Part shown: positions 19,830 to 58,210 of the stretch, in pieces
Position numbering within the stretch: the stretch's first letter is position 1
How the letters are laid out: every line of letters starts with the position of its first letter
DNA from: Octopus vulgaris
Lineage: Eukaryota
Direction of reading: 5' to 3'
NCBI GenBank assembly: GCA_951406725.2
Contig: OX597814.1
Span: forward strand, 4,278,001-4,342,000
Length of the DNA: 64,000 nucleotides
The notes under the pieces: generated by a model
What the model was told of the DNA's origin: nothing
The model's input: the letters and a program-made list of their open reading frames with translations, nothing else
Database searches by the model: none
Translations under genes and position numbers: made by a program

Positions 19830-19876
<47 letters not shown>

Positions 19877-20690: not shown

Positions 20691-20742
20691 GAATGATAAG
20701 AGGTCATACCACTCAGTCCTGCCAGTAATTGTTGCACTGATG

Positions 20743-21068
20743 GGTGTGAAGGCCATGGCTCAGTGGTTAGGGCATTCAGCTCATGATCATAAAGGCGTGA
20801 GTTTGATTTCTGATGACACATTGTGTCCTTGAGCAAGACACTTTATTTCACGTTGATCCAGTCCACTCAACTGGTAAAAATAAGTAGGACCTGTATTTCA
20901 AAGGGACCAGCCTTGTCACATTCTGTGCCATGCTGATTCTCCCTGAGAACTACGTTAAGGGTACGCATGTCTGTGGAGTACTCAGCCACTTGCATGTTAA
21001 TTGCACAAGCAGGCTGCTCTGTTGATCAGATCAACTGGAACCCTCATCAGCACAACCAACAGAGTACC
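20743..21068 (+). mobile_element. tRNA-derived SINE sharing its 3' half with family C (duplicate ~36990-37315)
   Basis: TGGCTCAGTGG A box, GTGTCCTTGAGCAAG core, then ACCTGTATTTCAAAGGG... as at 1127-1305. Confidence 0.8.
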
Positions 21069-21320
21069 AATTAGCATCAATTAGCACTGATGGACTCAGT
21101 TTAAGTCTCTTTTTGGTTTGGTTGGTTAATTAGCCCCAGGTATATGACCTCTGACCCTCATTGACCACCATCAGTATGACCTGTGAATTCCACCAGTTAC
21201 ATCTATAGAATCTAATGTATCGTGGTCACTGCCACGACCACTGTGCTGTACCAGTATATTACTGGTACATTCTTTTTATGACAACAAAGTAAAGAAGGAA
21301 AGAAACTGCTGAGGACTTAC

Positions 21321-22393: not shown

Positions 22394-22697
22394 ATATATA
22401 TATATAAGGCAAATAAGAAAATGGAGAGGATAAACAGTTGATAAACATCGGAAAGACAGGGATAAAGAGTCTTCTGGACTTCACAGAGTGTACGAGAGAC
22501 AGTCTATCATAGCATCAGCACAAGACATGTCCTCAATGAGTGATGACCAAAGAGGTCACTTGAGCCAATGACCTCTATAAGAGAGAGGGAAAGAGAGAAT
22601 GGAAGAGAAAGGGGGGGAGAGAGAAAGGGGAGAGGGAGAGAGAAAAGGAGAGAGAGATTACAAAGATGGCAATGGATATCCCCTTGCCAATGCTTAC

Positions 22698-22854
22698 CTT
22701 CTTCACACACCACTGACATGTTCCTTCAGTATTTGATATTCTGGCCTGAATGTCCGTTGCAGTGTGCACAGAACGAGGATTAAACACTGTCCGACAGACG
22801 GGACATTTTGGTTCTGCTAGAGCCATCGACAACGAGATACAATCCATGCAGAAC
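22698..22854 (-). CDS. RNF166: RNF166-like exon 2 (FCMDC...CPVCR...CQWCVKK)
   Basis: TTCCAG acceptor and AAG|GTAAGC donor; 157 bp. Second half of the RING and start of the C2HC finger, colinear with the RNF166/RNF114 family. Confidence 0.93.
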
Positions 22855-23267
22855 CTGGAACCAAACAAGAAGAGATGCAACGGCAAAAAAAAAAAAAAAA
22901 AAACCTTTTTAGACAATAGCAATAAGAATGGAAAATGTTCTGAGGTGCTTTCAGCAGAAAGTGAATGCAACACAAAAACAAGAAAATTCATACAAACAAA
23001 AATAAACATTAAACAACAGCTGGATATGGGTAGGGATATTTCTATCATTAATGCGGAGACATGGGGAAAAATTGGGAAACTGAGGTTGAGTAAACGGGCG
23101 ATAAACTACATTTCATGGGTGAAATGTGTACAGACATCACATTTCAAGGAGAAACATGCAAAGCCAAAATATTCATTGTGGAGAATACAATCAATCTCTA
23201 ATAGAATGGAAGGTTTAAGATTCCTGTGGAGTACAATTCAAAAGCCGTAGTTGTTATCTATAATCGT

Positions 23268-27054: not shown

Positions 27055-28184
27055 TCTAACATTTATGTTTTTTACAGATGTCCTTCGAATGTTGGGCTTC
27101 ACGGAGGCAATGACAAGTGACCAAGACCTTTGGAGATATGCTGTGCTTGAGAAGACCTGGTAAGCCAAGTGAGACCGTAGTGGTAGCCTATGCCAGTGTC
27201 GCATAACCAGCCCAGTTAAGAGTACCCTTCAATCATTGGACAATATACTGTGCATGAGAAGACCTGTTGAGTCAGGTGAAATCATTGTTGTGGCCGATTC
27301 CAGTACAGCCTGACTGGCTCCCGTGCCAGTGGCACATAAAAAGCACCATATGAGCATAGTCAATACCAGTACAGCCTGACTGGTCCTGTGCTGGTGGCAC
27401 ATAAAAAGCACCCACTAAATTCTCAAACTGGTTGGTGTTAGGAAGGGCATCAAGCTGTAGAAACCTTGCCAGATCAGATTGGGGCCTTGTGCAGCCTTCT
27501 GGCTCACCAGTCCTCAGTCAAACCATCCAACCCGTGCCAGCATGGAAAGCAGATGTTAAACAATGATGATGATAACAGGTGATTTTATATATATATAGAT
27601 ATATATATATATGACACTGGCTCCTGTGCAGGTGGCCGCTGCCAGTACCACTAAACTAGCCCTTGTGCCAGTGACACGTAAAAGCACCCACTACACTCTC
27701 GGAGTGGTTGGCATTAGGAAGGGCATCCAGCTGTAGAAACTCTGCCAGACCAGATTGGAATCTGGTTCGCCAGCCCTCAGTCAAATCGTCCAACCCATGC
27801 TAGCATGGAAAGCGGGCGTTAAACGATGATGATGATGATGATGATGACATATAGTATTTACTATATACTAGATATTAGGCATACTACACACCATACTAGT
27901 AGGGAAAATGCAGTAGCAGGAACAATAACAATCTTAATTAATTGAACTTGGAAAAGTGCAAGACAAGAGGAAGTGGAACCTTAAAGATATTACAGTTGAA
28001 GTACGAATTTGAGTTTAAATTATGTCTATTGGGAAAAGTTGATTCCTGAGCCTTATTTTACGTTTTGTCCCAAGGTTCCAGTGGGATATCTTAATTTTGA
28101 CATGAGTAGTGTAATATTTTTACAGTATACCATACCTCTCAGAAAGCCCATAGGAAAGAAATTAAAAAACATGTGTGTGAACTG

Positions 28185-28792
28185 CCACGGGCAGTGAAGT
28201 ATGGCAGTTCGCACACGTGTCCTACAATCTACCTTTCACTCTGAGTGAGAGACCCTTTGTCACCAGTAGGGGTAGAAGCTTTCTAAACTTTGCCCAGGCT
28301 ATTCATATTCTAGTGGTGACACTCTCTGAGCATCCACCTCCACTACTAACTTGGTCACCTAGGTAGCGGAAGCTATCAACTACTTCTAGTTTCCGCCCTG
28401 GAGTGTGATGGAATCTGTTTTCTGAGTATCTGTGGTGTCTATTACCCCTGTACATCTGCCGCACATGAAAGCTATTTTCTCGGTCAATTTTCCTTTGATG
28501 TTCCAGCACCTCTTATGTGTCCATAGCTTACACTGCTTACATGTTATGGAGTTTCTACCTACACCTTTCCTACAGATCGAGCAGGGCCACCTACCTGAAC
28601 AGGTGTGTGATGAGTTCGCCTTCCTACTTACTAGAACTTTGGTCTTTGCTACATTGACTCTAAGGCCTTTTGATTCTAAACCTAACTTCCACACACGAAA
28701 TTTCTTTTCTAGTTCCAGTGGTGATTCTGGTATGAGGGCCAGGTCATCAGCATAGAGGAGCTCCCAGGGGCAACTCATCTTGAATTCCTCTG
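28185..28792 (-). mobile_element. RTE LINE RT fragment with YADD and PHD finger (duplicate 45572-46180)
   Basis: CPWELLYADDLALI...GLRVNVAKTKVL...C4HC3...LEVVDSFRYLG. Confidence 0.9.
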
Positions 28793-29154
28793 TCATCATC
28801 ATCATCATCATCGTTTAACATCAGTTTTCCATGCTAGCATGGGTTGGACGGTTCAACTGGGGTCTGGGAAGCCAGAAGGCTGCGCCAGGCCCAGTCTGAT
28901 CTGGCAGTGTTTCTACGGCTGGATGCCCTTCCTAACGCCAACCACTCCGTGAGTGCAGTGGGTGCTTTTTACATGCCACCGGCACGGGGGCCAGACGAGG
29001 CTGGCAACGGCCACAATCGGATGGTGCATTTTACGTGCCACCGGTATGGAGCCCAGTCGGGGCAGCGCTGGCAACGGCCACGTTCGGATGGTTCTCTTAC
29101 GTGCCATCGGCACTGGTATCACAGCTACAATTTCCATTGATGTTGATCGATTTC

Positions 29155-29212
<58 letters not shown>

Positions 29213-29267
29213 TACACACAAATGTAGAGAGACAGAGGGAAATATATATTTGTGTTCAGTATATACA

Positions 29268-30796
29268 TTATGATTGGGTACTGAAACAGCCACTCAACCA
29301 TTCAAATGTGGATGTGATGTATCTCGACTTTGCCAAGGCCTTTGACAAAGCTGACCAGGGGATGACATGTCACAAACTACACGACCTTGGTATCACTGGA
29401 AAACTAGGGGAAGGGCTGCTCGACATTTTAAAGGACAGAAGTCAGGCAGTTCCAGCCAATGGTGCTCTCTCTGGGGAGACATCAATCCACAGCAGAGTAC
29501 CTCAGGGAGCTGTACTAGGACCGCTATTGTTTGTTGTGGCTCTCTCAGACATGCTGTCACTCATACAGTCAGCCATTCTCAACAGCTACACTGAGGATTC
29601 TGTGGGATGACACCAGCAGCTGGGTGCGTTGACCGGAAGCTGGGGCAACCGAAAGGGGCAGCCGTCAGGCGTGTGCAGGCAGCGGTGAATTCGGCCTTTC
29701 TAACGTGATTCGTCAAGGTGTCAAGACATGTGAGGACGTCGCTAAAGTTTGGGTGAGCAGCTGCTATCTTTAGTGTTCAGGTCGGGGCTGTGTCGAAGGA
29801 TTAGTTACCACTGAAGGGTTTCCATCACGAGGAAGAGACGGTAGGTGCCTTTATATTCGAATCGTGCACACACCACAGATACAAAATTATCTCAGGCAGT
29901 CAAGGACCCTGACGACATAGTAAAACTACAAAGTGACCTACATGCAATATATAAACAGGCTGATAAGTTTCAAGCACTTTGCTATCGGCCTACAAACAGA
30001 CCACAATCGGAATACATAGGACCAGGGTGTAATGCAATTCCAGAGCTGGAATCGGAACGCGACTTGGGAATCCACATAAGTAGTGATGCAACATTCCATG
30101 TGCATATTGCCAGGATGGTAACACTGTGCATGCGAGTAGCTGAATGGGTCCCTAGATCATTCAGGAGCAGAAATACGGATCCCTTGCCACCCCTATGGAG
30201 GACATTGGTCCTCAGTCATCTGGATGACTGCTCCCAACTGTGGTCACTGCAGAGCATCAAATTGGTGGAGGAACTTGAGGCAATCCAGCACCACTACACA
30301 AAGAAGATTGACTTGGTGAAACAGATGAGTTACTGGGAGGGGCACAAGAACTGAAGGTCTATTCTCTGGAGGGACGGTGATAAAGGTATGCAGTGATATA
30401 CACATGGAAGATCCTGGAAGGTCTAGTTCCCAACTTTGGAATTAAAAGCTTTACCAACCACCGAACTGGACGGCACTGCATACTACCAAAGATACCGTCT
30501 TCTTCAGCTCAGATAAGGACCCAGTATTGCAACAACTTGGGTTTCAGGGAAGCACAACTGTTTAACATCCTGCCAAGGAACCTAAGACACCTGCAAAGTG
30601 TAAATGTGGAACTGTTCAAAAAGCACCTGGACAAATTTCTATCTGAAATCCCAGATGAGCCCACATCACGGCTGGAGGCACAAAGAAGGACAGCTTCGTC
30701 TAACTCGCTTCTTCACCAAGAACAGTACCGAAAGGAGACCCATAAAACACTGAAAGGTGGTACTCCAGCATGGCCCCAGCCTCTGGCTGAAACCAA
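29268..30796 (+). mobile_element. CR1/L2-group LINE, 5'-truncated and decayed (duplicate 46656-48185 with complete 3' end)
   Basis: YLDFAKAFDK, VPQGAVLGPLLF, ERDLGI, LFNILP..FKKHLDKFL..IPDEP motifs; stops present. Confidence 0.9.
29592..29868. mobile_element. Putative solo LTR inserted in the YADD-equivalent codons of the CR1-like LINE (duplicate 46975-47251)
   Basis: TG...CA ends with imperfect inverted termini (TGAGGATTC / GAATCGTGCA); 5-bp TSD (T/C)ACAC. Removal restores SY-x-x-DTK. Confidence 0.65.
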
Positions 30797-30896: not shown

Positions 30897-31371
30897 TGCA
30901 ATAATTTAATTGTCTTATGCACACATATCTGCACAGGAGAATTAAAAATTACTGCCGATTTTAGCATTTTTGTAACTTTTTGCAGAACCCCTGGACTGTA
31001 CTGGCGGAACCCTGGTTGAAAACCACTGGTCTATATATATACATTAAACTACGGTTTACCTTTTTAAGTTACATGCTGCCGTATACCTTATACCAAGGAT
31101 CATACTTACGGAGGTAATTACCAGGAGTGCCTCTGAATACTTCTGTCCCTTAGAGGGCTTAACACCTACAACTTATCCCTTATAAAGTAATATATGTATG
31201 TATGTATGTATGTGTATGTGCATATGTTTGATTGCCTGTGTTTGTCCTCCCAACATCGCTTGACAACCGATGGTGGTGTGTTTATGGCTCCGTAACTTAG
31301 CGGTTCAGCAAAAGAGACCAATAGAATAAGTACTAGGCTTACAAAGAATAAGCTCTGGGGTCGATTTTCTC

Positions 31372-31411
<40 letters not shown>

Positions 31412-32814
31412 TCACACATATACAAACGTGTGTGTATATGTATATATATATACACAGACATATAGACATCTATCAATACTTAGTTCACATACATACTCAC
31501 ACTGACCCCTTAAACACTGGGCAGGGTCTGTTTTACATAGTCTAACTACTAAGACATTGCCGGGAGAGTAAGACAGTTAACAGACTCTGCCATATATGGC
31601 CATATATGGCATAAAGTCTGTCTAATAGCAAACAGACCCCACCACACATGGTCTAACTATGTAACAACAAACAGACCCAAATATACATGGTCCAACTGTA
31701 TAACATAGTAAACGGCCCCTAAAATATAAGGTCTAACTTTGTATAGCAGTGAACTGATTCATCTAGACATGGTCTAACTCTTTAAGACACTGGCTATAAA
31801 CAGACTACAAAGCTTCAGTTTTTCAGTGTTGAACATGTTTAGAACAGCCCTGGGGGGTGGGGATTTGTGGAGAGGTGGGGCAGGGGGTGTTGTGTGTGGA
31901 GGTGGGTGGGGGACATGAGGTGATGAGTGCACGTGGGAGGGTGGGGGTGTATATGTGTGTGGGACGGTCAGTGAGGGTGGTGGTGGGGAGGTGCATTGAG
32001 TGAAGGATCAGAATGTATAGTGCGTGTGTGTGTGTCTGTGTGTATGTGTGTGTGTGTCTGTGTGTATGTGTGTGTGTGTGGTGTGCTTTAAAACAGAAAC
32101 AGAAGGAAATATATCTGAATTACATAGCGACAGTGCCATCACACACACACACACACACACAATATAAAGATGAGGTGGAGGAGGGGAGGAACGTGCTGTT
32201 GAAGAACTGTTTACCATCTTCAGTTGGTTTCTGAAGAACTAAATTAAAAGCCAAGCCCACTATTTGATTAGTAGCACACAAATTGCCAAGCCAAGCCCAG
32301 GAATTCTTCTGGGCTGTGGACCCAATTTTTTATGTTAAGCCTGCTACCATTTTCGACAAGGGACAACGCTTTCTCTCCCCAATATTGGTCAATGAATCCT
32401 ACAGGTTGACATGGCGCTGTTTCTCACAAACCCAAGAATCAGCCAAGCTGTTCCATGCTGTCTACCAACCCCCAACCAGACAGCTCCAACAATCGCATTG
32501 GAGTCTTTTTCTCTCTCTTTTTCAGGTTTTTTTTTTTAAATCATCAAATCACAGTTTTACAAGGAAACCGAGTAAATGTTGCAGGAGGTAGCAGCAGCGA
32601 GTAACAGGAAGAGGAGACAGAGAGAGAGAGAGGAGACAGAGAGAGAGAGAGAGGAGGAGGGAGAGAAAGAGTGAGTGAGAGAGAGAGAGAGAGGGGGGAG
32701 GAACAGGGAGTGTAGGGCTGCATTAAATAAGTTGAAAGAAAAAAAAATAGGAAGCCGCTACGACGACCGGAACCGTCACCACCAGCACCATCACAATGGT
32801 TGGGTTGTCAGGAA

Positions 32815-32880
32815 TCACTGGTCTTGGAGAGACGCTTTTATAGCTTCTTCAATCATCTCTTGCTCATGTTTAGAGAAATC
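32815..32880 (-). CDS. RNF166: Duplicate copy of RNF166-like exon 5 (probably allelic/assembly duplicate)
   Basis: Identical to 16434-16499. Confidence 0.6.
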   Translation of the reverse strand, partial: DFSKHEQEMIEEAIKASLQDQ

Positions 32881-33938
32881 CTGGAAAAAAGAAAAAAATT
32901 TTAATCATCATCATCATCATCATCATTTTAGTGTTTTCTTTTCCTTTTTTTTTTTTTTTTTTTTTTTCCCCATTCGTTTCAGTCTGTAGACTCTGGCCAT
33001 GTTAAATCACCATCTCGAAAAATATCTGGTCAACCAAATTAATTCCAGTACTTCTTTTCTAAAACTTGGTACTTACTCTGTCGGTCTTTTTTGCTGGACC
33101 GCTAAGTTACACCGACACCATTTGTCAAACAATGTTGGCGGAGAGGATAAACAAACACACACAAACATATATGATGAGCTTCTTTCAGTTTCTCCATACT
33201 CAGTCCACTCACAAGGTTTTGGTTGACCTGGGGCTACAGTAGAAGACACTCGTCCAAGGTGCCACACAGTGGTCTTGAACCCAGAACCATGTGGTTGGGA
33301 AGTAAGCTTCTTACCATACAGTCAATACCTGTGCTTCTCATCCCTGGGTTTTCCAAACCAGCAATGGGTCAGGCAAGACTAAATACCACTCACCTGACCA
33401 ACCATAACGTGTTAGACATCATCATCATTATCATCATTTAACGTCCGTTTTCTATGCTGGCATGGGTCAGATGGTTCGACTGGGGTCTGGGAAGCCAGGA
33501 GGCTGCACCAGGCTCCAATCTGATCAGGCAATGTTTCTACGGCTGGATGCCCTTCCTAATGCCAACCACCCCAAGAGTGTAGTGGGTGCCTTTTTACATA
33601 CCACCGGCACAGGGGCCAGTCAGGCAGTACTGGCAATGACCTCGTTTGAATCTTTTTACACATGCCACCGGCACAGGTGCCAGTGGGAGCTGGCATCGAC
33701 CACATTTGGATAGTGCTTTTAAGTGTCATTGGCACAGGAGCCAGAGAGAGCTGGCAACAATAAAACCATGTTCACAAGAAATGTATCGCAAGCTTCTTAC
33801 CACACAGTCAATACCTGTGTCTCTCATCTCTGGGTTTTCCAAACCAGCAATGGGTCAGACAAGACTAGGTACCACTCACCTGACCAAAAATAATGTGTCG
33901 GACATAACATACAATAAAACCATGATCACAATACTTAC

Positions 33939-34046
33939 AACAAATGTATCGTATTCAAAGCGATGCCTCAAGCTCAAGTGACGAATGAAGTTAGCACTGA
34001 GTCTATGGGGATCACCCCATGGCATAGAGGTACATATAGGGCACAC
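33939..34046 (-). CDS. RNF166: Duplicate copy of RNF166-like exon 4 (probably allelic/assembly duplicate)
   Basis: Identical translation and splice sites to 17552-17659; lies in the duplicated block. Confidence 0.6.
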
Positions 34047-34749
34047 CTGTAAAATATGCAAACAAACAATACACCTGTAATACATATACACAAATAAGAC
34101 ACCTGAAAAACTGAAATTAATATAATCCAAATAAGAAAACAATGAAAGAGTTTATCAGTTCCTCACAAAAGACAACCAATTCCAAATGCTTCTATACCAA
34201 TTCCATTTTCAACATCAGTACATGCAACCTGGACAATTCTTTTAGTCTTTTACTTGTTTCAGTCATTTGACTGTCGTCATGCTGGTCAAACAAATCGACC
34301 CCAAGACTTATTCTTTGTAAGCCTAGTATTTATTCTATTGGTGTCTTTTGCCGAACTGCTAAGTTACAGGGACATAAACACACCAACATTGATTGGCACA
34401 GGGTCCAGAGGAAGCTGGCAAACGGCCATGATCAGTTGGTACTTTTTACGTGTCACCGACACGGACGCCAGTCAGGCGGCGCTGGCATCAGCCACGTTCG
34501 GATGGTGCTTTATACATGCCACTGGCACAAGCATCATAACTACAATTTCCATTTGATTTTCATTTTGATGTTGGTGTTGATGTACTTGACTCAAATAGGT
34601 CTCCTCAAGAACAGCGGGTCACTCTACGATCCAAGGTTAACACAGCAGGCCGTCCTGCAAGCCATGAACTCCTTTTATTTTGCCGGGTTTTCACAGTCAC
34701 AGCATATCTCCAGAGGTCTCGGTCTTTCGTCATAGCCTCTGTGAGGCTC

Positions 34750-34787
<38 letters not shown>

Positions 34788-35040
34788 TGTATCTGTGTTT
34801 GTGCCCCCATATATATTTATATACATATATATTTATATACATATATATATATCTGTAAAAATGGCTTATTGGTGAGCAATGTTATTTCTAATCTCCTCCC
34901 TGATCATCGTTGATACATTTTTTCACATTATTCTTCCACTCAGATTTATTTTAACGTATCATTTGAAACATGTCGGTGATGTAGTGATATAAATTATTCA
35001 AATAATATCTTGAGCAGTTGTCTCCATTTTCCTTTACTCT

Positions 35041-35076
<36 letters not shown>

Positions 35077-35556
35077 CATGCTTTTTTAACTAATTGATGA
35101 AGAGCAATATATACAGGAATGAAAGACAATCCCCAACCCAAATGCATCAGGACATGGCACTGGGTGATGTGAAGTTCTTTAATCAGGAACCACGTGGTTG
35201 TGAAACAAACATCTTACCATGCAGCCACTCCTGGGCCTATGTATGTCATTTTATCAACCATATCACTGAAAGTAGATGGTAGCTGTTGAAGATGGAAACC
35301 CAGGAAGACATGGGATGAAGTGGTGAGGACTGATCTTAGGATGTTGGGGACTCACAGAAGAAATGACACAGGACCGAGATGTCCGGAGAGATGAGGTTCT
35401 TGTGAAGACCCACACACATCAGCAAAACTGAGTTCTAGAAGCGTTGTGTCCCACCTACACATGAGAGAACCTTCACACACCCTACACCCAACAGACCAAA
35501 CTACATCTCTCCGAAACTCTATCTCTTCCCTTCCTCACATTTCCTCTTAAAAACTG

Positions 35557-35588
<32 letters not shown>

Positions 35589-36201
35589 GAGTGAGAGAGC
35601 AGTGCATGCCATCAAAGTGACACTGCGGTAAAATATACGAAGCCCAATATACCCATCATGACTACCTGTCTGATAAGGGTAGACCAGGCACATGCATCAC
35701 AACCATATGTGCGCGACATGGTGATCTCATATCCAGATAAACAGCACATGACTTTACAGGTGGGGCTCAGTTAGAATTTTCTTCCGGTCAAATAACCCAT
35801 CCCACTCAAAAGGTCCCTGAATAAGGATCGTTTAAGGATGATGAACAAAACACCCATGTTTCCAAAGGTGAATTATCCAGACCTCTAAGAATTCCTTTCA
35901 ACACACATGATGCTCCCCACCACTTCTTCTGCTCGTGATCAGAGAAGCACATATCGTCAGCCACTAAGGGACATGCTCAACTGATTAAGGTCAAACAACT
36001 GACAAGCAAATCTGTGGTATGAGCAGAATATTATTATTATTATTATTATTCAGGTCACTGCCTGGAATTGAACTTGGTATCTTGGGGTTAGTAGCCTGAC
36101 CTCTTAACTACAACACCTTATGCCTTTTGTTTTAGTCTGTTTTTCCATGCTTGTCTTTCTTATCCTTGCCCGTTATTTCTTTCTCCAAGGAAAGGATAAC
36201 A

Positions 36202-36246
<45 letters not shown>

Positions 36247-37658
36247 TGTATGCACCTGCATAGAGTACAACAAGGCTGGGGAGGTCAGCATTCTACTTTA
36301 AATAACAAGGCAATGACTAGTGACTGGGACCTTTGGAGATATGCTGTGCATGAGAAGACCTGACAAGCCAAGTAAGACCATACCCCATGGCCTATGCCAG
36401 TGGTGTAACTGGCCCACTTATGAGTACCCCTCATTCATTTGAGAATAAACTTTGCTTGCAAAAACCTGTTGAGGCAAGTGAAATCAAAATCACTGACATG
36501 GCCAATGACAGTACCACCTGATTGGTACTTGTGCAAGAGGAATGTTAAAAGCAGGTCCAAGAGTGATTGTTGCCAGGGCCACGGATTGGCTCCCGTGCCG
36601 GTGACATGTGAAAAGCACCAGTCGAGCATGGTCGTTGCCAGTTCCGCGGCACTGTGCCAGTGGAATGTGACAAAACAACATTCGAGCATGGTCATAGCCA
36701 GTGCTACCAGACAGGCTCCTGTGCAGGTAGCATTTAAAAAACACCTTTTGAGCGTGGTCGTTTCCAGAACCGCCTGACTTGTGCCTCGTGCCGATGGCAC
36801 GTAAAAGCACCCACTACACACTTGGATTGGTTGGTGTTATTTGGAAGAGTATCCAGCTGTAGAAACTTTGCAGTCCCCAGTCAAACCATCCAATCCATGC
36901 CAGCATGGAAAACGGACGTTAAACGATGATGATGATGAATGATAAGGGGTCATACCACTCAGTCCTGTCAGTAATTGTTGCACTGATGGGTGTGAAGGGC
37001 ATGGCTCAGTGGTTAGGGCATCGGCTTATCATCATAAAGGCGTGAGTTTGATTTCTAATGACACATTGTGTCCTTGAGCAAAGACACTTTATTTCACATT
37101 GCTCCAGTCCACTCAGCTGACAAAAATGAGTTGTACTTGTATTTCAAAGGGTCAGCCTTTTCCCATTCTGTGCCATGCTGATTCTCCCTGAGAACTACGT
37201 TAAGGGTATGTATGTCTGTGGAGTACTCAGCCATCTTGCACGTTAATTGCACAAGCAGGCTGCTCTGTTGATCAGATCAACTGGAACCCTCATCAGCACA
37301 ACCAACAGAGTACCAATTAGCATCAATTAGCACTGATGGACTCAGTTTTAAGTCTCTTTTTGGTTTGGTTGGTTAATTAGCCCCAGGTATAAGTGACCTC
37401 TGACCCTCATTGACCACCATCAGTATGACCTGTGAATTCCACCAGTTACATCTATAGAATCTAATGTATCGTGGTCACTGCCACGACCACTGTGCTGTAC
37501 CAGTATATTAAATGAGGTATGACTGGTACATTCTTTTTATGACAACAATATTTTGTATAATGCCTTTACTGATATGTAATGGTAATAAAGTATTACATCA
37601 TCTGTTAGTTGATGTTTTATTGATTTAAGTATGTTTCTCCATTTTCTAATTTTGTAGC

Positions 37659-38316: not shown

Positions 38317-41300
38317 TCATCATCATCATCATCATCATCATTTAGCGAGTCCGTTCTCCATGCTAGCATGGGTTGGACGGTTCACACTGGGGTCTGTGAA
38401 GCTGGAAGGCTTCATCAGGCCCATAAACAGATCTGGCAGTGTTTCTACGGCTGGATGCCCTTCCTAACGCCAACCACTCCGTGAGTGTAGTGGGTGCTAT
38501 CATAGCATCAGCACACCCGCACAGGTGCCAGACAGAGCTGGCAATGACGGCCACGAAGAGATGGTGCTTTTACGTGTCACCGGCACGGGGCCAGGCAAGG
38601 CTGGCAACGGACACGAACGGATGGTGCTTTTACGTGCCAATGGATATCCAACACGGGGGCCAGACAGAGCTGGCAAACGGCCACGAAACATGGATGGTGC
38701 TTTTCGTGTCACCGTTGCACGGGGGCACAGGCGAGGCTGGCAACGGACACGAACGGGATGGTGCTTTGCTACATGCCACCGACATGGTGGCCAGACAGGG
38801 CTGGCAAACGGCCACGAAACGGATGGTGCTTTCGTGTCACCGGCACGGGGGCCAGGTGAGGCTGGCAACGGACACGAACTGATGGTGCTTTTACATGCCA
38901 CCGACACGGGCCAGACAGGCTGGCAAACGGCCACGAACAGAATATTCATACAGTGTCATTAAACACGGCACTGGCCAGGCGAGGCTGGCAACGGACACGA
39001 ACGGATGGTGCTTTTACATGTCACCGACATGGGGGCCAGACTGAGGGCTGGCAAACACGATAACACAAACGGCTGGTGCTGTGTACGTGCCACCGGCAAG
39101 GAGACATGCAAAGCGGCCACGAACAGATGGTCTTTGTGGAGAACGTGTCAATCAATCTCTAATGGAATGGAAGGCCAGACAGAGCTGGCAAACGGCCACG
39201 AACGGATGGTGCTTCTATAATCGTGTCACCGGCACGGTGGCCAGACAGAGCTGGCAAATGGCCACAAACGAATGGTGCTTTTACGTGTCACCGGCACGGG
39301 GGCCAGGCCAGGCTGGAAACAACGAACACGACTGGATGGTGCTTTTACCCCTGTGCCACCAGACACGGTCGAACTGTCCAACGGCTAGCGACGGAAAACG
39401 GTACTTTTAAACGATGTCACCTGCACGGGGGCCCTGATGTTGATCGACCTCAATTTGGTTTGATCTTGATTTTTGACTGTTCTCACTGGTCTTGCCGGGT
39501 TTTCTCACGTAAGCGATACCATCCGATCGTGGCTCCAGCGCCGTCACTGGTCATTTCCTTGGTGAGACCTAAAGTTCGATGGTCACCATGCTTCACCGCC
39601 TCGACCCAGGTTTTCCTGGGTCTACCTCTTCCACAGGTCACCCACTCACTGCCAGGGTGTGGCACTTTCGCACACAATATCTTCAGCCTGATCCTCATCA
39701 CATGACCATACCAGCGCATACGTCCATGCTAGCATGCACATTAAATGATGATGCTTCTTAGGTTCAACTTTTCCAATCTACGAAGGTACTTCTACACTCT
39801 GTCGATTAGAACACTGATTTTAGCAACTCGGGTTAATACAAAGGAGCATGTAAAAGACTAGCTTCATCTCTTGCGAGCTTAGGCGACAGTCAGATAGCTG
39901 ATGTTGGATGTCACTCTGATGTCACCATTTGTAGCTGTTATGGCTGTACGTACACATGCATCAGTTGTGCAGGTTTTTACCCTTAACTTTGAGCGAGAGG
40001 CCTTTTGTCAGCCATTTGGGGTAAGAGCTCTTTAAACGCGATTGATGGCTAATACTCTAGCAGTTATACTTTCAGCGCACCCGCCCCCGCTACTGACTTG
40101 GTCACCTAGGTAACGGAAACTATCAACTACTTCTAGCTTTTCTCCCTGGAAAGTGACGGAAGTCTGGCAGAGCATTTTCAGTGTTAATTGCCCTTCCTGA
40201 GCATCTGCCACATACAAAAACCATCTTCCTAGTTAGCCTTCCTTTGACATTGCTGCACCTCTTATGTGTCCATAGCTTACACTTGGTGCATCTTATGGGT
40301 CAGAGTTTCTACCTACACCTCTTCTACAGATCGAGCAGGGCCATCTACCTGAATGGCGTTTGTGATTGGTCTACCTTCCTACTTATTAGGACTTTGGTTT
40401 TGGCTAGGTTGACTCTAAAGGCCCTTCAGATTCTAAACCTTGTTTCCATACCTGAAACTTCATCATCTAGTTCTGATAGAGACTCAGCAATTAGAGCAAG
40501 GTCATGCAGCTAGAGCTCCCAGGAGCATCCTGTCTTGAATTCCTCCGTTATTGCCTGGAGGACTATGATAAATAGGAGGGGACTGAGGACTGAACCTTGG
40601 TGGACCCCAACCTCTACCCTGAATTCTTCACTGTATCTCGGTGCCAACCCTCACCTTGGCTCTGTACATGGCTTCTTCTCACAGCTTTCACTAACCATTC
40701 ATCTATTCCTAGTTTCCTCATTGACCACCAGATGAGGGATCGGGGGACCCTGTCGAAGGAGCTTTCTCACATCAACAAAAGCCAGGTATAGGGGCTTGTC
40801 TTTGGCTAGGTGCTTTTCTCTTGCAGCTGTCTTACCATGAAAATAGCATCAGTAGTACTTTTCCTGGCACGAACCCAAACATCATCATGATCATAGGCTA
40901 ACGTCTCTCTCTAATTAGTTGAGCTATAACCCTCTCCGTAACCTTCATTACCTGATCCAGCAGCTTGATACCCCTGTAGTTAGTTTGTATCTAGGGCGTT
41001 ACCTTTACCTTTGTAGCAGCTGACTATTATACTGCTACACCAGTCATTGGGAATGACTCCTTCGGTATCACCTGTTAACTATACGGGTGACTAGGCTATA
41101 GCCAACACTACCAGATATTTTGAGCATCTCTGCAGTAATTCCTGATGGGCCTGGGGCTTTCCCTGTTTTCATGCTTTTAATTGCCTTATCTACTAAGGAA
41201 CTGTCAACTCGGATTGCTGGTCCCTCTGTTGGGTCAACATTCGGATGTGGTGCTCTTTTCCATGTGCCATTTTCGGCTCATATCAGCAACCTTTCATAGT

Positions 41301-42700
41301 CGCTTCTCCATTGATATTCTCTTTGCATCCTCATGTTAGCGCAAGTGAGCCGTCATCCTCAAGCACAGCATTTTCTCCTACCACGTAAATTTTAAATTCT
41401 CACACACTGGATAAAATCTTGCATATACGAAATTATCAGCTCCTTCATCCTAGCGTGAAAAACGCAGGACATTGGCTATAAATTTTTTCCTTGAAAAATT
41501 TATCTCTGGCATATTATAGAGCTGCATCCTGCTTCCTAAATGCCGCACGCTAGGTGGGACTTTTAAAGTCAAAACTTCCCTGCTACCACCGTTCTTCCAG
41601 TCCTTCCAAGCCTGTTTCTTTTGTCTAATAGCCCTGTCAACAGTATTGTTCCACCACCACGTTATTTTGGGTCTTGTGGGGACTTTGCACCAGCCACAGA
41701 TCTGGTCAGTGGCTTTCAGCAGGTTGTCCCTGTAATAATGCTCTCTATAAGATATACCCCATGTGTAGCTATGCACAGATTTCCGAAGGCTTCAAGTAAC
41801 ATGTCTCTAAATCTCTGTCCGTTAGCAGGGTCTTTAAGCTTCCAGACCCTTCTTCTCCATGTTGGTCGTCTTCTAGTCGTCCTCTTAGTCCTGATCCTAA
41901 AGTCACTGACTACCATTCTATGTTGTGGGGTACATTCTTCGCCTGGGACAGGTTTTGGACATGCCCTCATAACGCCAACCATCTTTCCTTTTTCTGGCAA
42001 GGATGTAGTCGATCTAGTATGCCACCGACGGTAGGTGACCAGTCAGGCAGTACTGGCAATGGTCACTCAAATCTTAGTGTTGCAAACATGCCAGCCGGCA
42101 CAGGTGCCAGTAACCTGGTAATCAGCCTCATGGTGCCTTTTACCATGGCCACCAGCCATACGGAAGCCCTCAGTCAACGTCACACATGCCACATTGAAGT
42201 CACCAGCCACAAAGAGATGGTCCTGTTGTTCGTCAATGAGGTGGTCTGCAGTAGGGTGTCATAGAAACGGTCTTTCTGTCCATCGGGTAACCCTGGTCTG
42301 AGGGGCATAGGCCGATATAATAGTGTCTAAAAACTATGATGGAGCACTAATCTAATCTTCAATATTCTGTCACATACTCTGACTACCTCGATGACTTTAT
42401 CTACCACATTTTTCGGTCAATAAGCATACCCACTCCCCCGACTCCTTCAGTATTCCCGGCCCAGAAAGTCTCAGTCACTGTCCTTTACCCGTGAGGAACC
42501 TAATGCAGAACCTCCTCTCACCTCACCTCTGAATACAGCATATATCTACACACCTCCGTTCAAGCAATTCGACGATCTCACCAGATCTGCCTTTCAGTGT
42601 GCCACACATTGAGGGTGCCAACCATTCTTGAGGAAGTGGGAGGCAATGGACCTAGTAGTCATCATGAACCTGAAAAGAAAACTCGCGTTTGGCAGTATTT
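38317..42700 (-). mobile_element. Near full-length RTE LINE (APE endonuclease, RT, 3'UTR), heavily scrambled
   Basis: PGEECTPQHRMVVSDF, TWWWN, KGKG..NYRGIKL, VGVHQGSVLSPLLF and RWYGHVMR motifs, interleaved with foreign snippets. Confidence 0.8.
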
Positions 42701-43503: not shown

Positions 43504-43520
43504 CCATATATTTATATATA

Positions 43521-44960
43521 TCATCATCATCGTTTAACGTCCGCTTTCCATGCTAGCATGGGTTGGACGGTTCAACTGGGGTCTGGCAAGCCCGAAGGCT
43601 GCACCAGGCCAGTCAGATGTGGCAGTGTTTCTACAGCTGGATGCCCTTCCTAACGCCAACCACTCCGAGAGTGTAGTGGGTGATTTTATGTGCCACCGAC
43701 ACAGGTGCCAGACGAGGCTGGCAGACGGCCACGCTCGGATGGTGTTTTTTATGTGCCACCGACACAGGTGCCAGACGAGGCTGGCAGACGGCCACGCTCG
43801 GATGGTGTTTTCTTATGTGTCACCGACACAGGTGCCAGACGAGGCTGGCGGACGGCCACGCTCGGATGGTGTTTGTTACGTGCCCTCAGCACGGAGGCCA
43901 GTCATTGCGGTACTGGCTACGGTCACGTTCGGATGGTTTTCTTATGTGCCACCGGCACTGGTACCACAAGGATACAAATTCCATTGATGTTCATCTATTT
44001 TGATTTGGTTCGATTTGATTCGATATGATTCGATTCTCACTTGCCTCAACAGGTCTTCACAAGTGTCACAAGAAGGAAGGTATGCACAGGTGGACTGACT
44101 ACGTCCCAGGTAGGGGCCACGGATTATGGCTTCACTAGTCTTGCCGGGTCTTCTCACGCACAGCATACTTCCATAGGTCTCGGTCTCTAGTCATTTCCAT
44201 GGTGAGACCTAACGTCCGAAGGTCGTGCTTCACCACCTCGTCCCAGGTCTTCCTGGGTCTACCTCTTCCACGGGTTCCCTCAACTGCTAGGGATTGGCAC
44301 TTTCTCACACACCTATCTTCATCCATTCTCGCCACATGACCATACCAGCGCAATCGTCTCTCTTGCACACAACAACTGATGCTTCTTAGGTACAACATTT
44401 CTCTCAAGGTACTAACGCTCTGTCGAGTAAGTACACTGACATTACACATCCATCGGAGCATACTGGCTTCGTTCCTCACGAGCTTACGCATGTCCTCAGC
44501 AGTCACGGCCCATGTTTCACTGCCATGTAGCATAGCTGTTCGTACACATGCATCATACAGTCTGCCTTTTACTCTGAGCGAGAGGCCTTTAGTCACCAGC
44601 AGAGGTAAGAGCTCCCTAAACTTTGCCCAGGCTATTCTTATTCTAGCAGTTACACTTTCAGCGCACCCACCCCCACTACTGACTTGGTCACCTAGATAGC
44701 GGAAGCTATCAACTACTTCTAGTTTTTCCCCCCGGAAAGTGACAGAAGTTGTTTTCTGCAGATTTTCGGAGGTCAATGCTCCAGAGCACCTGCCACATAC
44801 AAAAACTATCTTCCCAGTTAGCCTACCTTTGACATTGCTGCACCTCTTATGTGTCCATAGCTTACACTGGGTACATCTTATAGAGTTTCTACCTACACCT
44901 TTTCTACAGATCGAGCAGGGCCATCTTCCTGAGGATAGTTGTGGGTTTTCTACCTTTCTA

Positions 44961-44962
<2 letters not shown>
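43521..44962 (-). mobile_element. Young 5'-truncated RTE LINE with uninterrupted ORF end (44135-44962) and full 3'UTR
   Basis: About 275 open codons from PHD finger to REKTRQD*, then UTR, hairpin units and (GAT)n. Confidence 0.93.
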
Positions 44963-44999
<37 letters not shown>

Positions 45000-46548
45000 C
45001 ACTGGCTCCTGTGCAGGTGGCACGTAAAAAGCACCATTTGGGCATGGCCGCTGCCAGTACCACTAAATTAGCCCTTGTGCCGGTGGCACGTAAATAGCAC
45101 CCACTATACTCTCGGAGTGGTTGGCTTTAGGAAGGGTATCCAGCTGTAGAAACTCTGCCAGATCAAGACTGGAGCCTGGTGCAGCCATCTGGTTTGCCAG
45201 CCCACAGTCAAATCGTCCAACCCATGCTAGCATGGAAAGCGGACGTTAAACGATGATGATGATGATGACATATAGTATTTACTATATACTAGGCATACTA
45301 CACACCATACTAGCAGGGAAAATGCAGTAGCAGGAACAATAACAATCTTAATTAATTGAACTTGGAAAAGTGCAAGACAAGAGGAAGTGGAACCTTAAAG
45401 ATATTTGAGTTTAAATTATGTCTTTTGGGAAAAGTTGATTCCTAGGCCTTATTTTACATTTTGTTCCAAGGTTCCATTAATTTTGACATGGGTGGTGTAA
45501 TATTTTTACAGTATACCATACCTCTCAGAAAGCCTATAGGAAAGAAATTAAAAAACATGTGTGTGAACTGCCACGGGCAGTGAAGTATGGCAGTTCGCAC
45601 ACATGCATCATACAATCTACCTTTCACTCTGAGTGAGAGACCCTTTGTCACCAGTAGGGATAGGAGCTTTCTGAACTTTGCCCAGGCTATTTGTATTCTA
45701 GTGGTGACACTCTCTGAGCTTCCACCTCCACTACTAACTTGGTCACCCAGGTAGCGGAAGCTATCAACTACTTCTAGTTTCCGCCCTGGAGTGTGATGGA
45801 ATCTGTTTTCTGAGTATCTGTGGTGTCTATTGTCCCTGTGCATCTGCCGCACATGAATGCTATCTTCTCAGTTAATTTCCCTTTGATGTTCCAGCACCTC
45901 TTATGCATCCATAGCTTACACTGCTTACATGTTATGGAGCTTCTACCTACACTTTTCCTACAGATCGAGCAGGGCCACCTACCTGAACAGGTGTGTGATG
46001 AGTTCGCCTTCCTACTTACTAGAACTTTGGTCTTTGCTACATTGACTCTAAGGCCTTTTGATTCTAAACCTAACTTCCACACACGAAATTTCTTTTCTAG
46101 TTCCAGTAGTGATTCTGGTATGAGGGCCAGGTCATCAGCATAGAGGAGCTCCCAGGGGCAACCTGTCTTGAATTCCTCTGTCATCATCATCATCATCATC
46201 GTTTAACATCAGTTTTCCATGCTGGCATGGGTTAGACGGTTCAACTGGGGTCTGGGAAGCCAGAAGGCTGCGCCAGGCCCAGTCTGATCAGGCAGTGTTT
46301 CTACGGCTGGATGCCCTTCCTAACGCCAACCACTCCGTGAGTGCAGTGGGTGTTTTTTACGTGCCACCGGCACGGGGGCCAGACGAGGCTGGCAACGGCC
46401 ACAATCGGATGGTTCATTTTACGTGCCACAGGTATGGAGCCCAGTCGGGGCGGCGCTGGCAACGGCCACGTTTGGATGGTTCTCTTACGTGCCATCGGCA
46501 CTGGTATCACAGCTACAATTTCCATTGATGTTGATCGATTTCTGTATA

Positions 46549-46610
<62 letters not shown>

Positions 46611-48282
46611 AATGTAGAGAGACAGAGGGAAATATATATTTGTGTTCAGTATATACATTATGATTGGGTACTGAAACAGCCACTCAACCATTCAAATGTG
46701 GATGTGATGTATCTCGACTTTGCCAAGACCTTTGACAAAGTTGACCAGGGGATGACAAACTACATGACCTTGGTATCACTGGAAAACTAAGGGAAGGGCT
46801 GCACAACATTTTAAAGGACAGAAGTCAGGCAGTTCCAGCCAATGGTGCTCTCTCTGGGGAGACATCAATCCACAGCAGTGTTCCTCGGGGAGCTGTACTA
46901 GGACCGCTATTGTTTGTTGTGGCTCTCTCAGACATGCTGTCACTCATACAGTCAGCCATTCTCAACAGCTACACTGAGGATTCTGTGGGATGACGTCCGC
47001 AGCTGGGTGAGTTGACCGGAAGCTGGGGCAACCGGAAGGGGCAGCCGTCAGGCGTGCGCAGGCAGTGGTGAATTCGGCCTTTCTAACGTGGGTCATCGAG
47101 GTGTCAAGACGTGTGAGGACGTCACTAAAGTTTGGGTGAGCAGCTGCTATCTTTAGTGTTCAGGTCGGGGCTGTGTCGAAGGATTAGTTACCACTGAAGG
47201 GTTTCCATCACGAGGAAGAGAAGGTAGGTGCCTTTATATTCGAATCGTGCACACACCACAGATACAAAATTATCTCAGGCAGTCAAGGACCCTGACGACA
47301 TAGTAAAACTACAAAGTGACCTACATGCAATATATAAACAGGCTGATAAGTTTCAAGCACTTTGCTATCGGCCTACAAACAGACCACAATCGGAATACAT
47401 AGGACCAGGGTGTAATGCAATTCCAGAGCTGGAATCGGAACGCGACTTGGGAATCCACATAAGTAGTGATGCAACATTCCATGTGCATATTGCCAGGATG
47501 GTAACACTGTGCATGCGAGTAGCTGAATGGGTCCCTAGATCATTCAGGAGCAAAAATATGGATCCCTTGCCACCCCTATGGAGGACATTGGTCCTCAGTC
47601 ATCTGGATGACTGCTCCCAACTGTGGTCACTGCAGAGCATCAAATTGGTGGAGGAACTTGAGGCAATCCAGCACCACTACACAAAGAAGATTGACTTGGT
47701 GAAACAGATGAGTTACTGGGAGGGGCACAAGAACTGAAGGTCTATTCTCTGGAGGGACGGTGATAAAGGTATGCAGTGATATACACATGGAAGATCCTGG
47801 AAGGTCTAGTTCCCAACTTTGGAATTAAAAGCTTTACCAACCACCGAACTGGACGGCACTGCATACTACCAAAGATACCGTCTTCTTCAGCTCAGATAAG
47901 GACCCAGTATTGCAACAACTTGGGTTTCAGGGAAGCACAACTGTTTAACATCCTGCCAAGGAACCTAAGACACCTGCAAAGTGTAAATGTGGAACTGTTC
48001 AAAAAGCACCTGGACAAATTTCTATCTGAAATCCCAGATGAGCCCACATCATGGCTGGAGGCACAAAGAAGGACAACTTCGTCTAACTCGCTTCTTCACC
48101 AAGAACAGTACCGAAAGGAGACCCATAAAACACTGAAAGGTGGTACTCCAGCATGGCCCCAGCCTCTGGCTGAAACCAATAAAAGAATATATATATACAA
48201 GCACACACATACATACTGATACACATCACATTCTTTTTCGAAATTTCAAGTTTCGTTTTGTGACGTGTGTTACTATGTATAC

Positions 48283-52688: not shown

Positions 52689-53493
52689 TTAAGGTGGTTT
52701 TGTATGTCCTCCAAAGAATTAAAATTTTTACCATTGACATTATTTTGCAAGGACATGAATAAATGGAAATCCGAAGGAGCAATGTCTGGTGAATGTGGCA
52801 GGTGGGGGTACCACATCCCAGTCAAGCTGCAACAATTTTTGACAGGTTGTCAAAGAAACATGAGGTTTGGAATTATCCTGATGGAAGACAACACTTTTCC
52901 TGTTCACCATTCCTGGACGTTTTTCTTGAATTGCTGCCTTTAAAGTCACTCAGTTGCGAGCAGTACTTCTCAGAATTGACTGGTTACATGGCAGAAGCTC
53001 ATAGTACAGGATTCCTTTCCGATCCCACCAGATGCAAAGCATGACTTTCTGAGGATGAAGACCCGCTTTTGAGGTGGCTAAAGGAGGCTCATGTTGCTTA
53101 CCCCATGATCTTTTTCACTGAACATTGCTGTAAATGGTCCATTTCTCATCACCTATCACAATTTGCTTCAAAAAGGATTCCATTGCGTTTATACAGCAAA
53201 TCTCAAATAGAAATGCAATCCAAAAGATTCCACTCAGATCATAGGTTACCTAAACATCGTAGCGATTTACGTACCCAAGCTTTACTAAGTGCTCATGGAG
53301 GGTGGATTTTGATAAATTTAGGTGTTCTGCCAAATCCTGCATTGTATAATGTGGGTTATTCTCAATCAATGTTTTGATTTGGTTGTCATCTGAAGGTGGG
53401 TGGGGCAGTCAACCTGAGCATTCTTCATCAATAAGGCTACAATCACCAACTCTAAATTTAGTAAACCACTTCCGTCCAGTTCTGTCATCTAAA

Positions 53494-54141
53494 GTACCAT
53501 CACCATACACAGCACACCTGTACCATCACCATACACAGCACACCTGTACCATCACCATACACAGTACACCTGTACCATCACCATACACAGCACACCTGTA
53601 CCATCACCATACACAGCACACTTGTACCATCACCATACACAGCACACCTGTACCATCACCATACACAGCACACCTGTACCATCACCATACACAGCACACC
53701 TGTACCATCACCATACACAGCACACATGTACCATCACCATACACAGCACACCTGTACCATCACCATACACAGCACACCTGTACCATCACCATACACAGCA
53801 CACCTGTACCATCACCATACACAGCACACCTGTACCATCACCATACACAGCACACCTGTACCATCACCATACACAGCACACCTGTACCATCACCATACAC
53901 AGCACACCTGTACCATCACCATACACAGCACACCTGTACCATCACCATACACAGCACACCTGTACCATCACCATACACAGCACACCTGTACCATCACCAT
54001 ACACAGCACACCTGTACCATCACCATACACAGCACACCTGTACCATCACCATACACAGCACACCTGTACCATCACCATACACAGCACACCTGTACCATCA
54101 CCATACACAGCACACCTGTACCATCACCATACACAGCACAC
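53494..54141. repeat. 26-bp minisatellite (GTACCATCACCATACACAGCACACCT), ~25 copies
   Basis: Directly visible, near-perfect. Confidence 0.97.
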
Positions 54142-54792
54142 ATCCTTTTTGTTGCTTGCAAGGCACTTTTGCTTTTACGGTAATAAAAAAGCACCAAGTG
54201 TTTAAAATGCGCTTTTTAATCTTCTGTTTCCATAGGGACACAAAATTGACATGAATTAAATAATTTAAAATTTTCTTTCTCAAGAGATAGTTTGAAGTGT
54301 GTGCTAACCAGAAATGTAAGCACCATTCGAGTGTGGTCATTGCCAGTGCCGCCTGACTGGCCCCTATGCTGGTGGCACATAAAAAGCACCATTCAAGCGT
54401 GGTCAATGCCAATACCACCTGACTGGCCCTCATGCTGGGGGCACGCAAAAAGGACCCACTCCACTCTTGGAGTGGTTGGTGTTAGGAAGGACATCTGGCT
54501 GTAGAAACTCTGCCAGATCAAGATCGGGGCCTGGTGCAGCCTTTACGGCTTCCCAGACCTCAGTCAAACTGTCCAACCCATGCCAGCATGGAAAGCAGAC
54601 GTTAAACAATGATGATGGTGATGATGAAGATGATGAGGATGCTGCTGATGATGATGATGCTGGTGATGATGATGATGATGATGATGATATGTATCGATAA
54701 ATTTGACGTGTTCTAACGTGTTGGAACATGAACAGCTAAAAATCAGCAGGGACTTGCCGGACAACCCAATATAATACTGTACACCCCGATTA

Positions 54793-57508: not shown

Positions 57509-57553
<45 letters not shown>

Positions 57554-58210
57554 TCATCATCATCATCATCGTTTAACGTCCGCTTTCCATGCTGGCAAGG
57601 GTTGGACGGTTCAACTGGGGTCTGGGAAGCCCGAAGGCTGCACCAGGCTCCAGTCTGATCTGGCAGTGTTTCTACAGCTGGATGCCCTTCCTAACGCCAA
57701 CCACTCTGAGAGTGTGGTGGGTGCTTTTTATGTGCCACCGGCACAGGTGCCAGATGAAGCTGGCAGCGGCCACGGTCGGATGGTGCTTTTTATGTCCCAC
57801 CGGCACGGATGCCAGTCAGGCGGCACTGGCTACGGTCACGTTCGGATGGTTCTCTTCATCATCATCGTTTAACGTCCACTTTCCCTGCTAACATGGGTCG
57901 GACGATTTGACTGAGGACTGGCAAACCAGATGGCTGCACCAGTCTTTAAATATATTTATTTATATTAAGGGCATTACTATACATAAATGCCTCACGCTAT
58001 TAGGGACTCATAAAGTCAAAACTACCATAATAATGTTTATTGTGGTAGTTATGACTTTAAGAGTCCCTCCTAGCATGAGGCATTTATGTATAGTAATGCC
58101 CTTAATATAAATAAATATATTTAAAGGGAATAAGTAATCAATTTTTCCCTTATGAGGTTTTTCATGCTAACTACTTGATAAATTCTTATAAAGATTTTAT
58201 CCTATTTTAA

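Follow-up and report, generated by a model that had tools for sequence, protein, structure and literature searches.

LINEs (long interspersed nuclear elements) of the RTE clade, such as RTE-2_OV, Bov-B and a family in catfish, share a common plan: one open reading frame (ORF) that encodes an apurinic/apyrimidinic (AP) endonuclease and a reverse transcriptase (RT), a microsatellite 3′ tail and frequent 5′ truncation. In LTR elements and retroviruses, chromatin readers bias integration, as with the chromodomains of chromoviruses and with LEDGF, in which tethering by the PWWP domain is combined with nucleosome binding. PHD fingers occur in LINEs of the CR1/L2 (Jockey) group, for which Kapitonov and Jurka (2003) is said to be the reference. 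They are located in ORF1 or upstream of the endonuclease, and excerpts of Metcalfe and Casane 2014 (PMC4120745) suggest a genome-targeting role for them, with no functional study known to those authors. In R2Bm, according to the cited sections, a short loop between RT motifs 6 and 7 (loop 6a, residues 672–677) contacts upstream target DNA, and its deletion blocks nicking (PMC10499050); in vertebrate R2 proteins, too, this loop is wedged into the target DNA (PMC12180492). Here we analyze a stretch of 64,000 nucleotides from Octopus vulgaris (contig OX597814.1, positions 4,278,001 to 4,342,000; hereafter the window), in which a preliminary description had reported a canonical PHD finger inside an RTE reverse transcriptase. 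We find that the finger belongs to a lineage of RTE-clade LINEs, the PHD-RTE family, in which it occupies the region between RT motifs 6 and 7, and that the octopus copies of this family are concentrated in CpG-poor DNA.

The 132 bases at 44786–44917 of the reverse strand encode a 44-residue finger with the spacing C-x2-C-x10-C-x2-C-x4-H-x2-C-x14-C-x2-C, with Trp two residues before the His and Phe two before the seventh Cys, exactly as described. Against the PHD profile PF00628, the isolated finger scored 28.6 bits (cut-off 24, E 1.4e-6), and relatives from a catfish, a hydrozoan and one further source also exceeded the cut-off; the whole 1,039-residue octopus protein scored 19.8 bits, under it. 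RING and C1 domains have a different ligand order from this finger, whose fifth ligand is His, and their models scored too low, all RING models falling far under their Pfam cut-offs and C1_1 reaching 23.7 bits against a cut-off of 26.5. Over 100 shuffles of the window's six frames, a loose C4HC3 pattern had 0 matches. A predicted model of the isolated finger had a pLDDT of 77–89 across the finger. Foldseek matched this model to the PHD fingers of TAF3 and Pygo with probabilities up to 1.00, though with E values of only 0.02–0.1, and in a VIA search (Z 3.2–4.6) ranks 1–30 were all PHD-containing proteins by title, with Pygopus tied at the top (Z 4.6) with ARID5, TAF3 and PHF23. Among solved structures, those closest in sequence and fold include the PHD fingers of PHF13, PHF23, TAF3 and Pygo, and 13 rows among the protein matches additionally carry PF27108, named PHD_Pygo. 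By profile score and predicted fold, the C4HC3 insert is a genuine PHD finger, and its ligand set would hold two zinc ions.

Among the matches listed, most PHD-bearing proteins have about 97 residues between motif 6 and the YLG of motif 7. The same spacing is 33 residues in the PHD-less catfish family and 36 in an RTE-2_OV-like family of the same octopus genome. Judged by these spacings, the finger is an insert, as had been proposed; it is lineage-wide, has about 60 residues and is not a standard feature of RTE elements. A local alignment of the octopus protein to R2Bm stopped at query residue 763 (R2Bm residue 666), just ahead of loop 6a; because it ends there, the finger appears to occupy a loop that faces target DNA in another group of LINEs. 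The position matches, but the R2 loop is short, reads a fixed ribosomal DNA sequence and is described in the cited sections as R2-specific (PMC10499050, PMC12180492), whereas the PHD-RTE family carries a whole zinc-binding reader domain there, in an AP endonuclease-type element without a fixed target. Unlike the PHD fingers of CR1/L2 proteins, this one lies inside the RT and in a different clade. The preliminary description had placed the finger after YADD and GLRVN.KTK (motif 6) and before EVVDSFRYLG (motif 7). The last of these does follow it, but the flagged copy is 5′-truncated at 44965, 16 codons ahead of the first Cys and abutting a (TA)n run, and therefore has no YADD or motif 6 of its own; both precede the finger in the diverged copies in the window and in intact copies elsewhere in the genome.

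We searched the 2.8-Gb octopus genome for copies of the family. With the 825-base ORF remnant of the flagged copy as query, there were 3,233 first-look candidates, and all 40 of the 40 scored were about 99.5% identical; a protein search gave 25,907 candidates, and 18 of the 150 scored lay in open frames of at least 1,030 residues. The family is young, and the flagged copy, which is 99.2% identical to an intact one and flanked on both sides by (TA)n-rich DNA, is a dead copy produced by an active family. Its identity to a repeat with so many candidates rules out a host exon or domesticated gene. The intact natural copy at locus L012 (positions 3005–6124) encodes a protein of 1,039 residues (P0123) with AP endonuclease, RT, the finger at residues 780–823 and an AT-hook-like motif. 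In a predicted model of the full ORF (pLDDT 89.2, pTM 0.82), the finger had values of 86–94 and the linkers 75–84; the model matched LINE-1 ORF2p (Z 27.7, 598 residues, rmsd 4.0) and also R2. Full-length copies (L012:1976–2851; also L025, L030, L042 and L049) have a tandem unit of ~450–610 bases in the 5′ region. Between subfamilies (L012 against L084 and L087), dS was 0.51–0.61 in the endonuclease half and 0.10–0.29 in the RT half; since it is far higher in the former, 5′ regions seem to have been exchanged between octopus subfamilies. Contigs covering the region from two sequencing runs were set aside as evidence of transcription, as the runs are not on record as RNA.

Architecture, tail and tree all place the element in the RTE clade of LINEs. 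It has a single ORF with AP endonuclease and RT and without RNase H, and all 40 of 40 copies end in a (GAT)n tail of 1–9 units. Its RT formed a group with the two PHD-less RTE families that excluded CR1-like LINEs (SH-aLRT 100), in a quick tree of 39 rows that lacked Bov-B, RTE-1 and Rex3 reference sequences and does not fix the subclade. Octopus bimaculoides and O. vulgaris supply the closest named proteins, and a catfish RTE protein is 33% identical to the octopus element over 980 residues. We take the PHD-less catfish family to be Rex3/Expander-like. RTE-2_OV, the published octopus brain element (PMC9115989), is not the same element, as its primers mismatch the PHD-RTE family at 6–7 positions; they instead mark a separate family in the octopus genome that has no insert and ends in a C2H2 finger. 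We collected 40 copies of this second family (L122–L161), five of which have frames of 1,123–1,124 residues ending in the C2H2 finger. In the cited sections, the original RTE-2_OV paper (Petrosino et al. 2022, PMC9115989) reports no full-length genomic copy, and excerpts of a 2026 paper state that the RTE-2_OV sequence could not be identified.

To follow the finger through the lineage, we pooled 204 relatives from two protein searches, the second of which used only the RT core preceding the finger. All eight ligands are retained in 168, the finger is damaged in 11, and 25 have none (22 from the catfish family, 3 deletion-broken members). The RT-core search alone recovered a full finger in 57 of 62 new matches outside the catfish family. 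Hosts identified by name are octopus, the catfish Neoarius and the hydrozoan Hydractinia; bacterial labels on a few relatives probably stem from metagenome bins that contain animal DNA. The clusters (50% identity) that matched with E 1e-10 or better numbered 354, and of 147 matches checked, 81 had a full finger, with RT motif 6 or 7 adjoining it in 79. A captured cellular PHD unique to octopus is thereby ruled out. PHD-bearing rows formed one group in three quick trees (SH-aLRT 88, 91 and 76; 61 or 33 of 151 usable rows), consistent with a single gain, although loss in the catfish family may be the alternative.

Within the family the finger is conserved and its surroundings are not. The eight ligands are invariant in alignment A1, which was itself mostly built from proteins picked for a full finger. 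Mean top-residue frequency was 0.67 in the finger and 0.64 in the thumb, against 0.41–0.44 in the linkers. Between octopus subfamilies, dN/dS was 0.21 and 0.10 for the finger and 0.81 and 0.97 for the linker after it, rough values that rest on 46 and 20 codons. From these comparisons, the finger is kept by purifying selection while the linkers evolve near neutrally. The diverged copies at 28452–28583 and 45840–45971 also keep all eight ligands, as reported, and both fall within a duplicate pair of 94.5% identity. The domain, its position and its conservation we regard as established. The pairing of RT and PHD is already visible in databases, since an automatic ESM Atlas cluster has a name that combines PHD with RT, and one protein of O. 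bimaculoides is labelled PHD-type in UniRef. In the open literature, outside of which lie Repbase Reports and most subscription journals, we found neither a PHD finger at the RT 6–7 loop of an RTE element nor the compartment bias described below, and word look-ups in the available text of PMC10294476, PMC13282606 and PMC13295347 returned no mention of PHD. The placement is thus apparently undescribed, although a prior note in Repbase Reports or a subscription journal is possible. It is a real, conserved variant in a field where PHD fingers in LINE ORF1 and inserts in the R2 6–7 loop were already known.

We wondered what kind of PHD finger this is. Pocket positions were assigned through an alignment to Pygo2, with residue roles as given in excerpts of PMC2726290, and counted over the 168 relatives with a full finger. 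The Trp two residues before the His, which divides the pocket, is present in 166, an aromatic residue or His two before Cys1 in 155, V, T or I four after Cys2 in 166, and S or A three before Cys3 in 165, so that four of the five positions of the Pygo1 methyl-lysine cavity are retained. A divider Trp with a second aromatic is named as a trait of H3K4me-reading PHD fingers in the cited part of PMC3241642. The features of readers of unmethylated H3K4 were not found: the cage Trp is present, and the residue two before Cys1 is acidic in only 7 relatives. One acidic residue lies further upstream of Cys1 in 116, and in the octopus finger such a residue precedes Cys1 by 11 positions. All 168 carry a positive net charge (median +6), K or R follows the His in 145, and family-specific P, G and N residues are near-invariant. 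The Pygopus PHD shares the tied top fold match, a similar N-terminal half and the retained cavity positions; it differs in a first loop of 12 residues rather than 10, in carrying D352 and E360, and in being acidic rather than basic. Taken together, the finger seems to combine a retained methyl-lysine pocket with a basic body, a design that would be better suited to a nucleosome than to an H3 peptide on its own.

We next consider where copies land. A run of (TA)4 or more lay within 30 nt of a junction in 30 of 40 young copies, against a background of 6–10%. At the 3′ junction itself, (TA)n was present in 20 of 40 copies of the PHD family and 13 of 30 of its second subfamily, and also in 13 of 35 PHD-less RTE copies (p 0.35) and 28 of 30 CR1-like copies. 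Because junctions of PHD-less LINEs in the same genome are also (TA)n-rich, we ruled out (TA)n targeting as the finger's job; (TA)n junctions are a general habit of LINEs in the octopus genome. The CR1/L2-like control (L082:2–2375, L090–L119) is a young PHD-less LINE with a (TATCAAAG)n tail, and with its 3′ end so regularly abutting (TA)n it is close to microsatellite-specific.

The larger-scale surroundings do differ between families. The ratio of observed to expected CpG (CpG o/e) is bimodal in the octopus genome. Its median in the flanks of 39 young PHD-RTE copies was 0.44, compared with 0.76 for 35 PHD-less RTE and 0.72 for 30 CR1-like copies, and 1 of the 39 had island-like flanks. For 20 new sites, taken with 8-kb flanks, the median stood at 0.42, compared with 0.72 and 0.71 for the two PHD-less families (p 4e-4 and 8e-4). 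We then compared 50 sites (the 20 new ones and 30 of the second subfamily) with 85 random loci (20 plus 65 more; one random locus was dropped for overlap with another). CpG o/e was below 0.55 in 37 of 50 young copies, 32 of 85 random loci (Fisher p 7e-5) and 12 of 40 PHD-less copies (p 4e-5); with the family's own repeats masked, the counts were 35 of 48 and 32 of 85 random. Finally, in 125 regions not anchored on the family, its 3′ ends occurred in 24 of 42 CpG-poor but 2 of 83 CpG-normal regions (p 2e-12), at densities of 1.94 and 0.09 per 10 kb, and ORF pieces in 9 of 42 and 2 of 83; the control families had 0 and 3 matches, too few for comparison. The PHD-RTE family is therefore biased towards one compartment of the octopus genome, and the two PHD-less LINE families showed no enrichment in CpG-poor DNA.

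At 99.5% identity, the young copies are too young to have eroded kilobases of CpG, so they arrived or survived in DNA that was already depleted. Excerpts of PMC9476566 report that methylation in O. bimaculoides is found on expressed gene bodies rather than on transposons or promoters, promoters carrying little. The CpG-poor compartment is thus likely to be the methylated bodies of expressed genes, from which selection would be expected to thin LINEs, not enrich them. The preliminary description had suggested that the finger could steer integration. A strong bias such as one would expect from a chromatin reader is present, but it runs towards CpG-poor rather than promoter-like DNA, and the finger may be its cause; the link is correlational and comes from one lineage in one genome.

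We think it somewhat probable that the finger tethers the RT complex to nucleosomes of active gene bodies, through basic DNA contacts and a weak methyl-lysine contact, while endonuclease and tail pick a nearby AT-rich site. Under this model, a PHD finger was grafted into the motif 6–7 loop of one RTE-clade lineage and kept by purifying selection. By analogy with R2 loop 6a, it would point at target DNA upstream of the nick. Its basic residues may grip nucleosomal DNA, and the Trp/aromatic pocket may receive a methylated lysine from a histone tail; without the acidic H3 anchors, this contact would be weak and aided by DNA binding. The tethered enzyme would bias new insertions towards CpG-poor, probably gene-body, DNA, with the precise insertion point still left to the AP endonuclease and the (GAT)n tail and often falling within a (TA)n run. 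The fuller proposal is more tentative, possible but short of probable: that a widespread animal LINE lineage with a nucleosome reader in its target-facing RT loop inserts into methylated active gene bodies by reader-guided target-primed reverse transcription, shaping the gene-body compartment of the octopus genome as a LINE counterpart of chromodomain- and LEDGF-guided integration. Those systems act via an integrase, whereas here the RT of a target-primed element would itself contain the reader.

Several observations weigh against this explanation. Some concern the finger. An acidic residue stands at the position of Pygo D352 (six after Cys2) in only 2 of the 168 relatives and at that of E360 (one after Cys3) in only 9; according to excerpts of PMC2726290, Pygo1 presents an acidic face to the histone and requires E360 to bind H3. 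The flagged octopus finger has a charge of +11, with 11 basic and zero acidic residues. The acidic anchor after Cys3 and the acidic pocket lip of H3K4me readers are thus missing in nearly all relatives, acidic residues after Cys3 being found in 12 and Met three before Cys3, as in PHF13 and PHF23, in 0. With these features rare or absent and the charge positive, the finger is not a textbook H3K4me3 reader, and to call it canonical was an overstatement; an acidic Arg2 pocket is not universal among PHD readers, however, as RAG2 illustrates (PMC3241642, cited part). A 2018 review, in the cited section, knew of no PHD binding both histone and nucleic acid (PMC6222470), which counts against a dual-binding finger, or for its novelty.

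The others concern the insertion sites. The first test against random positions, 20 against 20, gave only p 0.07 (0.42 vs 0.71), and the 0.55 cut was picked after the 20-site result, although rank tests that use no cut point the same way (p 5e-4 relative to random). In the later comparisons, roughly half of the control-family sites had already served in the first. Thirteen of the 50 young copies lie in CpG-normal DNA, and some copies (L036, L040 and L043) sit in the tails of older relatives, so that self-reinforcing clustering could amplify a small bias. A single PHD lineage was compared with two PHD-less families, both distant and both different from it in endonuclease, tail and probably timing of expression; these are not the nearest controls, the nearest PHD-less relative being the catfish family. 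CpG o/e is only a proxy for the gene-body or methylation compartment.

The best-placed alternative, which we consider rather unlikely, is that histone reading has been lost and the finger is purely a nucleic-acid clamp, which aids priming or processivity by holding target DNA, template RNA or the RNA:cDNA hybrid on its basic surface and exposed Trp, with the compartment bias due to another cause. The positive charge, the K or R after the His and the missing acidic anchors would all fit such a clamp, as would the direct DNA binding by the R2 loop at the matching site (PMC10499050, PMC12180492, cited sections). DNA-binding PHD fingers do exist, such as BRPF2 PHD2 and PHF6 ePHD2, but those named in the cited section of PMC6222470 have atypical ligands and no histone pocket, whereas this finger is C4HC3 and keeps four pocket positions in 155–166 of 168 proteins. 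A clamp would also leave the compartment bias unexplained.

It is improbable, in our view, that the finger instead binds a host non-histone protein (a chaperone, a nuclear import factor or an elongation-linked factor) or packs structurally on the RT, with any targeting indirect. PHD fingers are known to bind non-histone partners as well (PMC3241642, cited part), and the near-invariant P, G and N residues could form a protein interface. However, the linkers that flank the finger are of lower confidence in the full-ORF model and evolve near neutrally, and for that reason a tethered module fits better than a packed one. That the finger is a conventional H3K4me3 reader sending the element to promoters is very improbable: the Trp, the second aromatic and the nearest solved fingers would suit it, but the Met of such readers is missing and their acidic residues are rare, the flanks are CpG-poor and almost never island-like, and octopus promoters carry scant methylation according to excerpts of PMC9476566.

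How LINEs without a fixed target select chromatin is largely an open question, and the tethering explanation can be tested directly in the PHD-RTE family, which is young and high-copy, has intact ORFs, a removable 60-residue module in which pocket residues can be named and a strong bias that can be measured, and shares its genome with PHD-less RTE controls. If the finger does steer insertion, the RT 6–7 loop would be a general docking site for targeting modules, with the R2 loop and the PHD finger as two cases. This would bear on retrotransposon-based genome writing, and it would explain the crowding of the family in CpG-poor, likely gene-body, octopus DNA.

The features of the element in the window are listed in Table 1.

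Table 1 Features of PHD-RTE copies in the 64-kb window
Feature	Position	Strand	Remarks
PHD finger (C4HC3), Cys1 to Cys8	44786–44917	−	Residues 780–823 of the intact 1,039-residue ORF
W-P-C1	44915–44923	−	Aromatic two before Cys1, at position of Pygo1 Y341 (methyl-lysine pocket wall)
Loop-1 motif V-G-x-N-S-I	44879–44896	−	V, S and I at positions of Pygo1 V350, A356 and I357
W-T-H	44849–44857	−	Trp two before His, at pocket-divider position (Pygo1 W366)
RT motif 7 region	44690–44719	−	EVVDSFRYLG
AT-hook-like motif	44249–44272	−	RGRGRPRK near C-terminus, under Pfam cut-off
Whole 5′-truncated young RTE copy	43520–44965	−	Includes 3′ untranslated region; (GAT)4 tail at 43520–43531
Surviving open 3′ part of ORF	44135–44962	−	275 residues: linker, PHD, motif 7, thumb, C-terminus
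Diverged-subfamily fragment	45581–46184	−	YADD, motif 6, intact finger 45840–45971; frameshift just after finger
Duplicate of the preceding fragment	28195–28796	−	Finger 28452–28583; likewise frameshifted after finger
Old decayed near-full-length copy (77%)	39483–42643	−	Frameshifted finger at about 40200–40340

The duplicate pair that contains the two diverged fragments spans 3.2 kb (27586–30796 and 44971–48179). A second local duplication, of about 6.7 kb and 97% identity, joins 14535–21287 and 30897–37548. Short 3′ ends of the PHD-RTE family with a (GAT)n tail occur at 18 sites (for example 8943–9040, 28793–28890 and 57551–57648); these copies, SINE-like (resembling short interspersed nuclear elements) or heavily truncated, are very dense in the window. 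The window is itself CpG-poor, with a CpG o/e of 0.34–0.71 per 4 kb. A weak RING-finger similarity on the reverse strand at 22575–23105 (E 0.016, under the cut-off) is possibly part of a host exon. At 53338–54287 lies a near-perfect tandem array of a 26-base unit.
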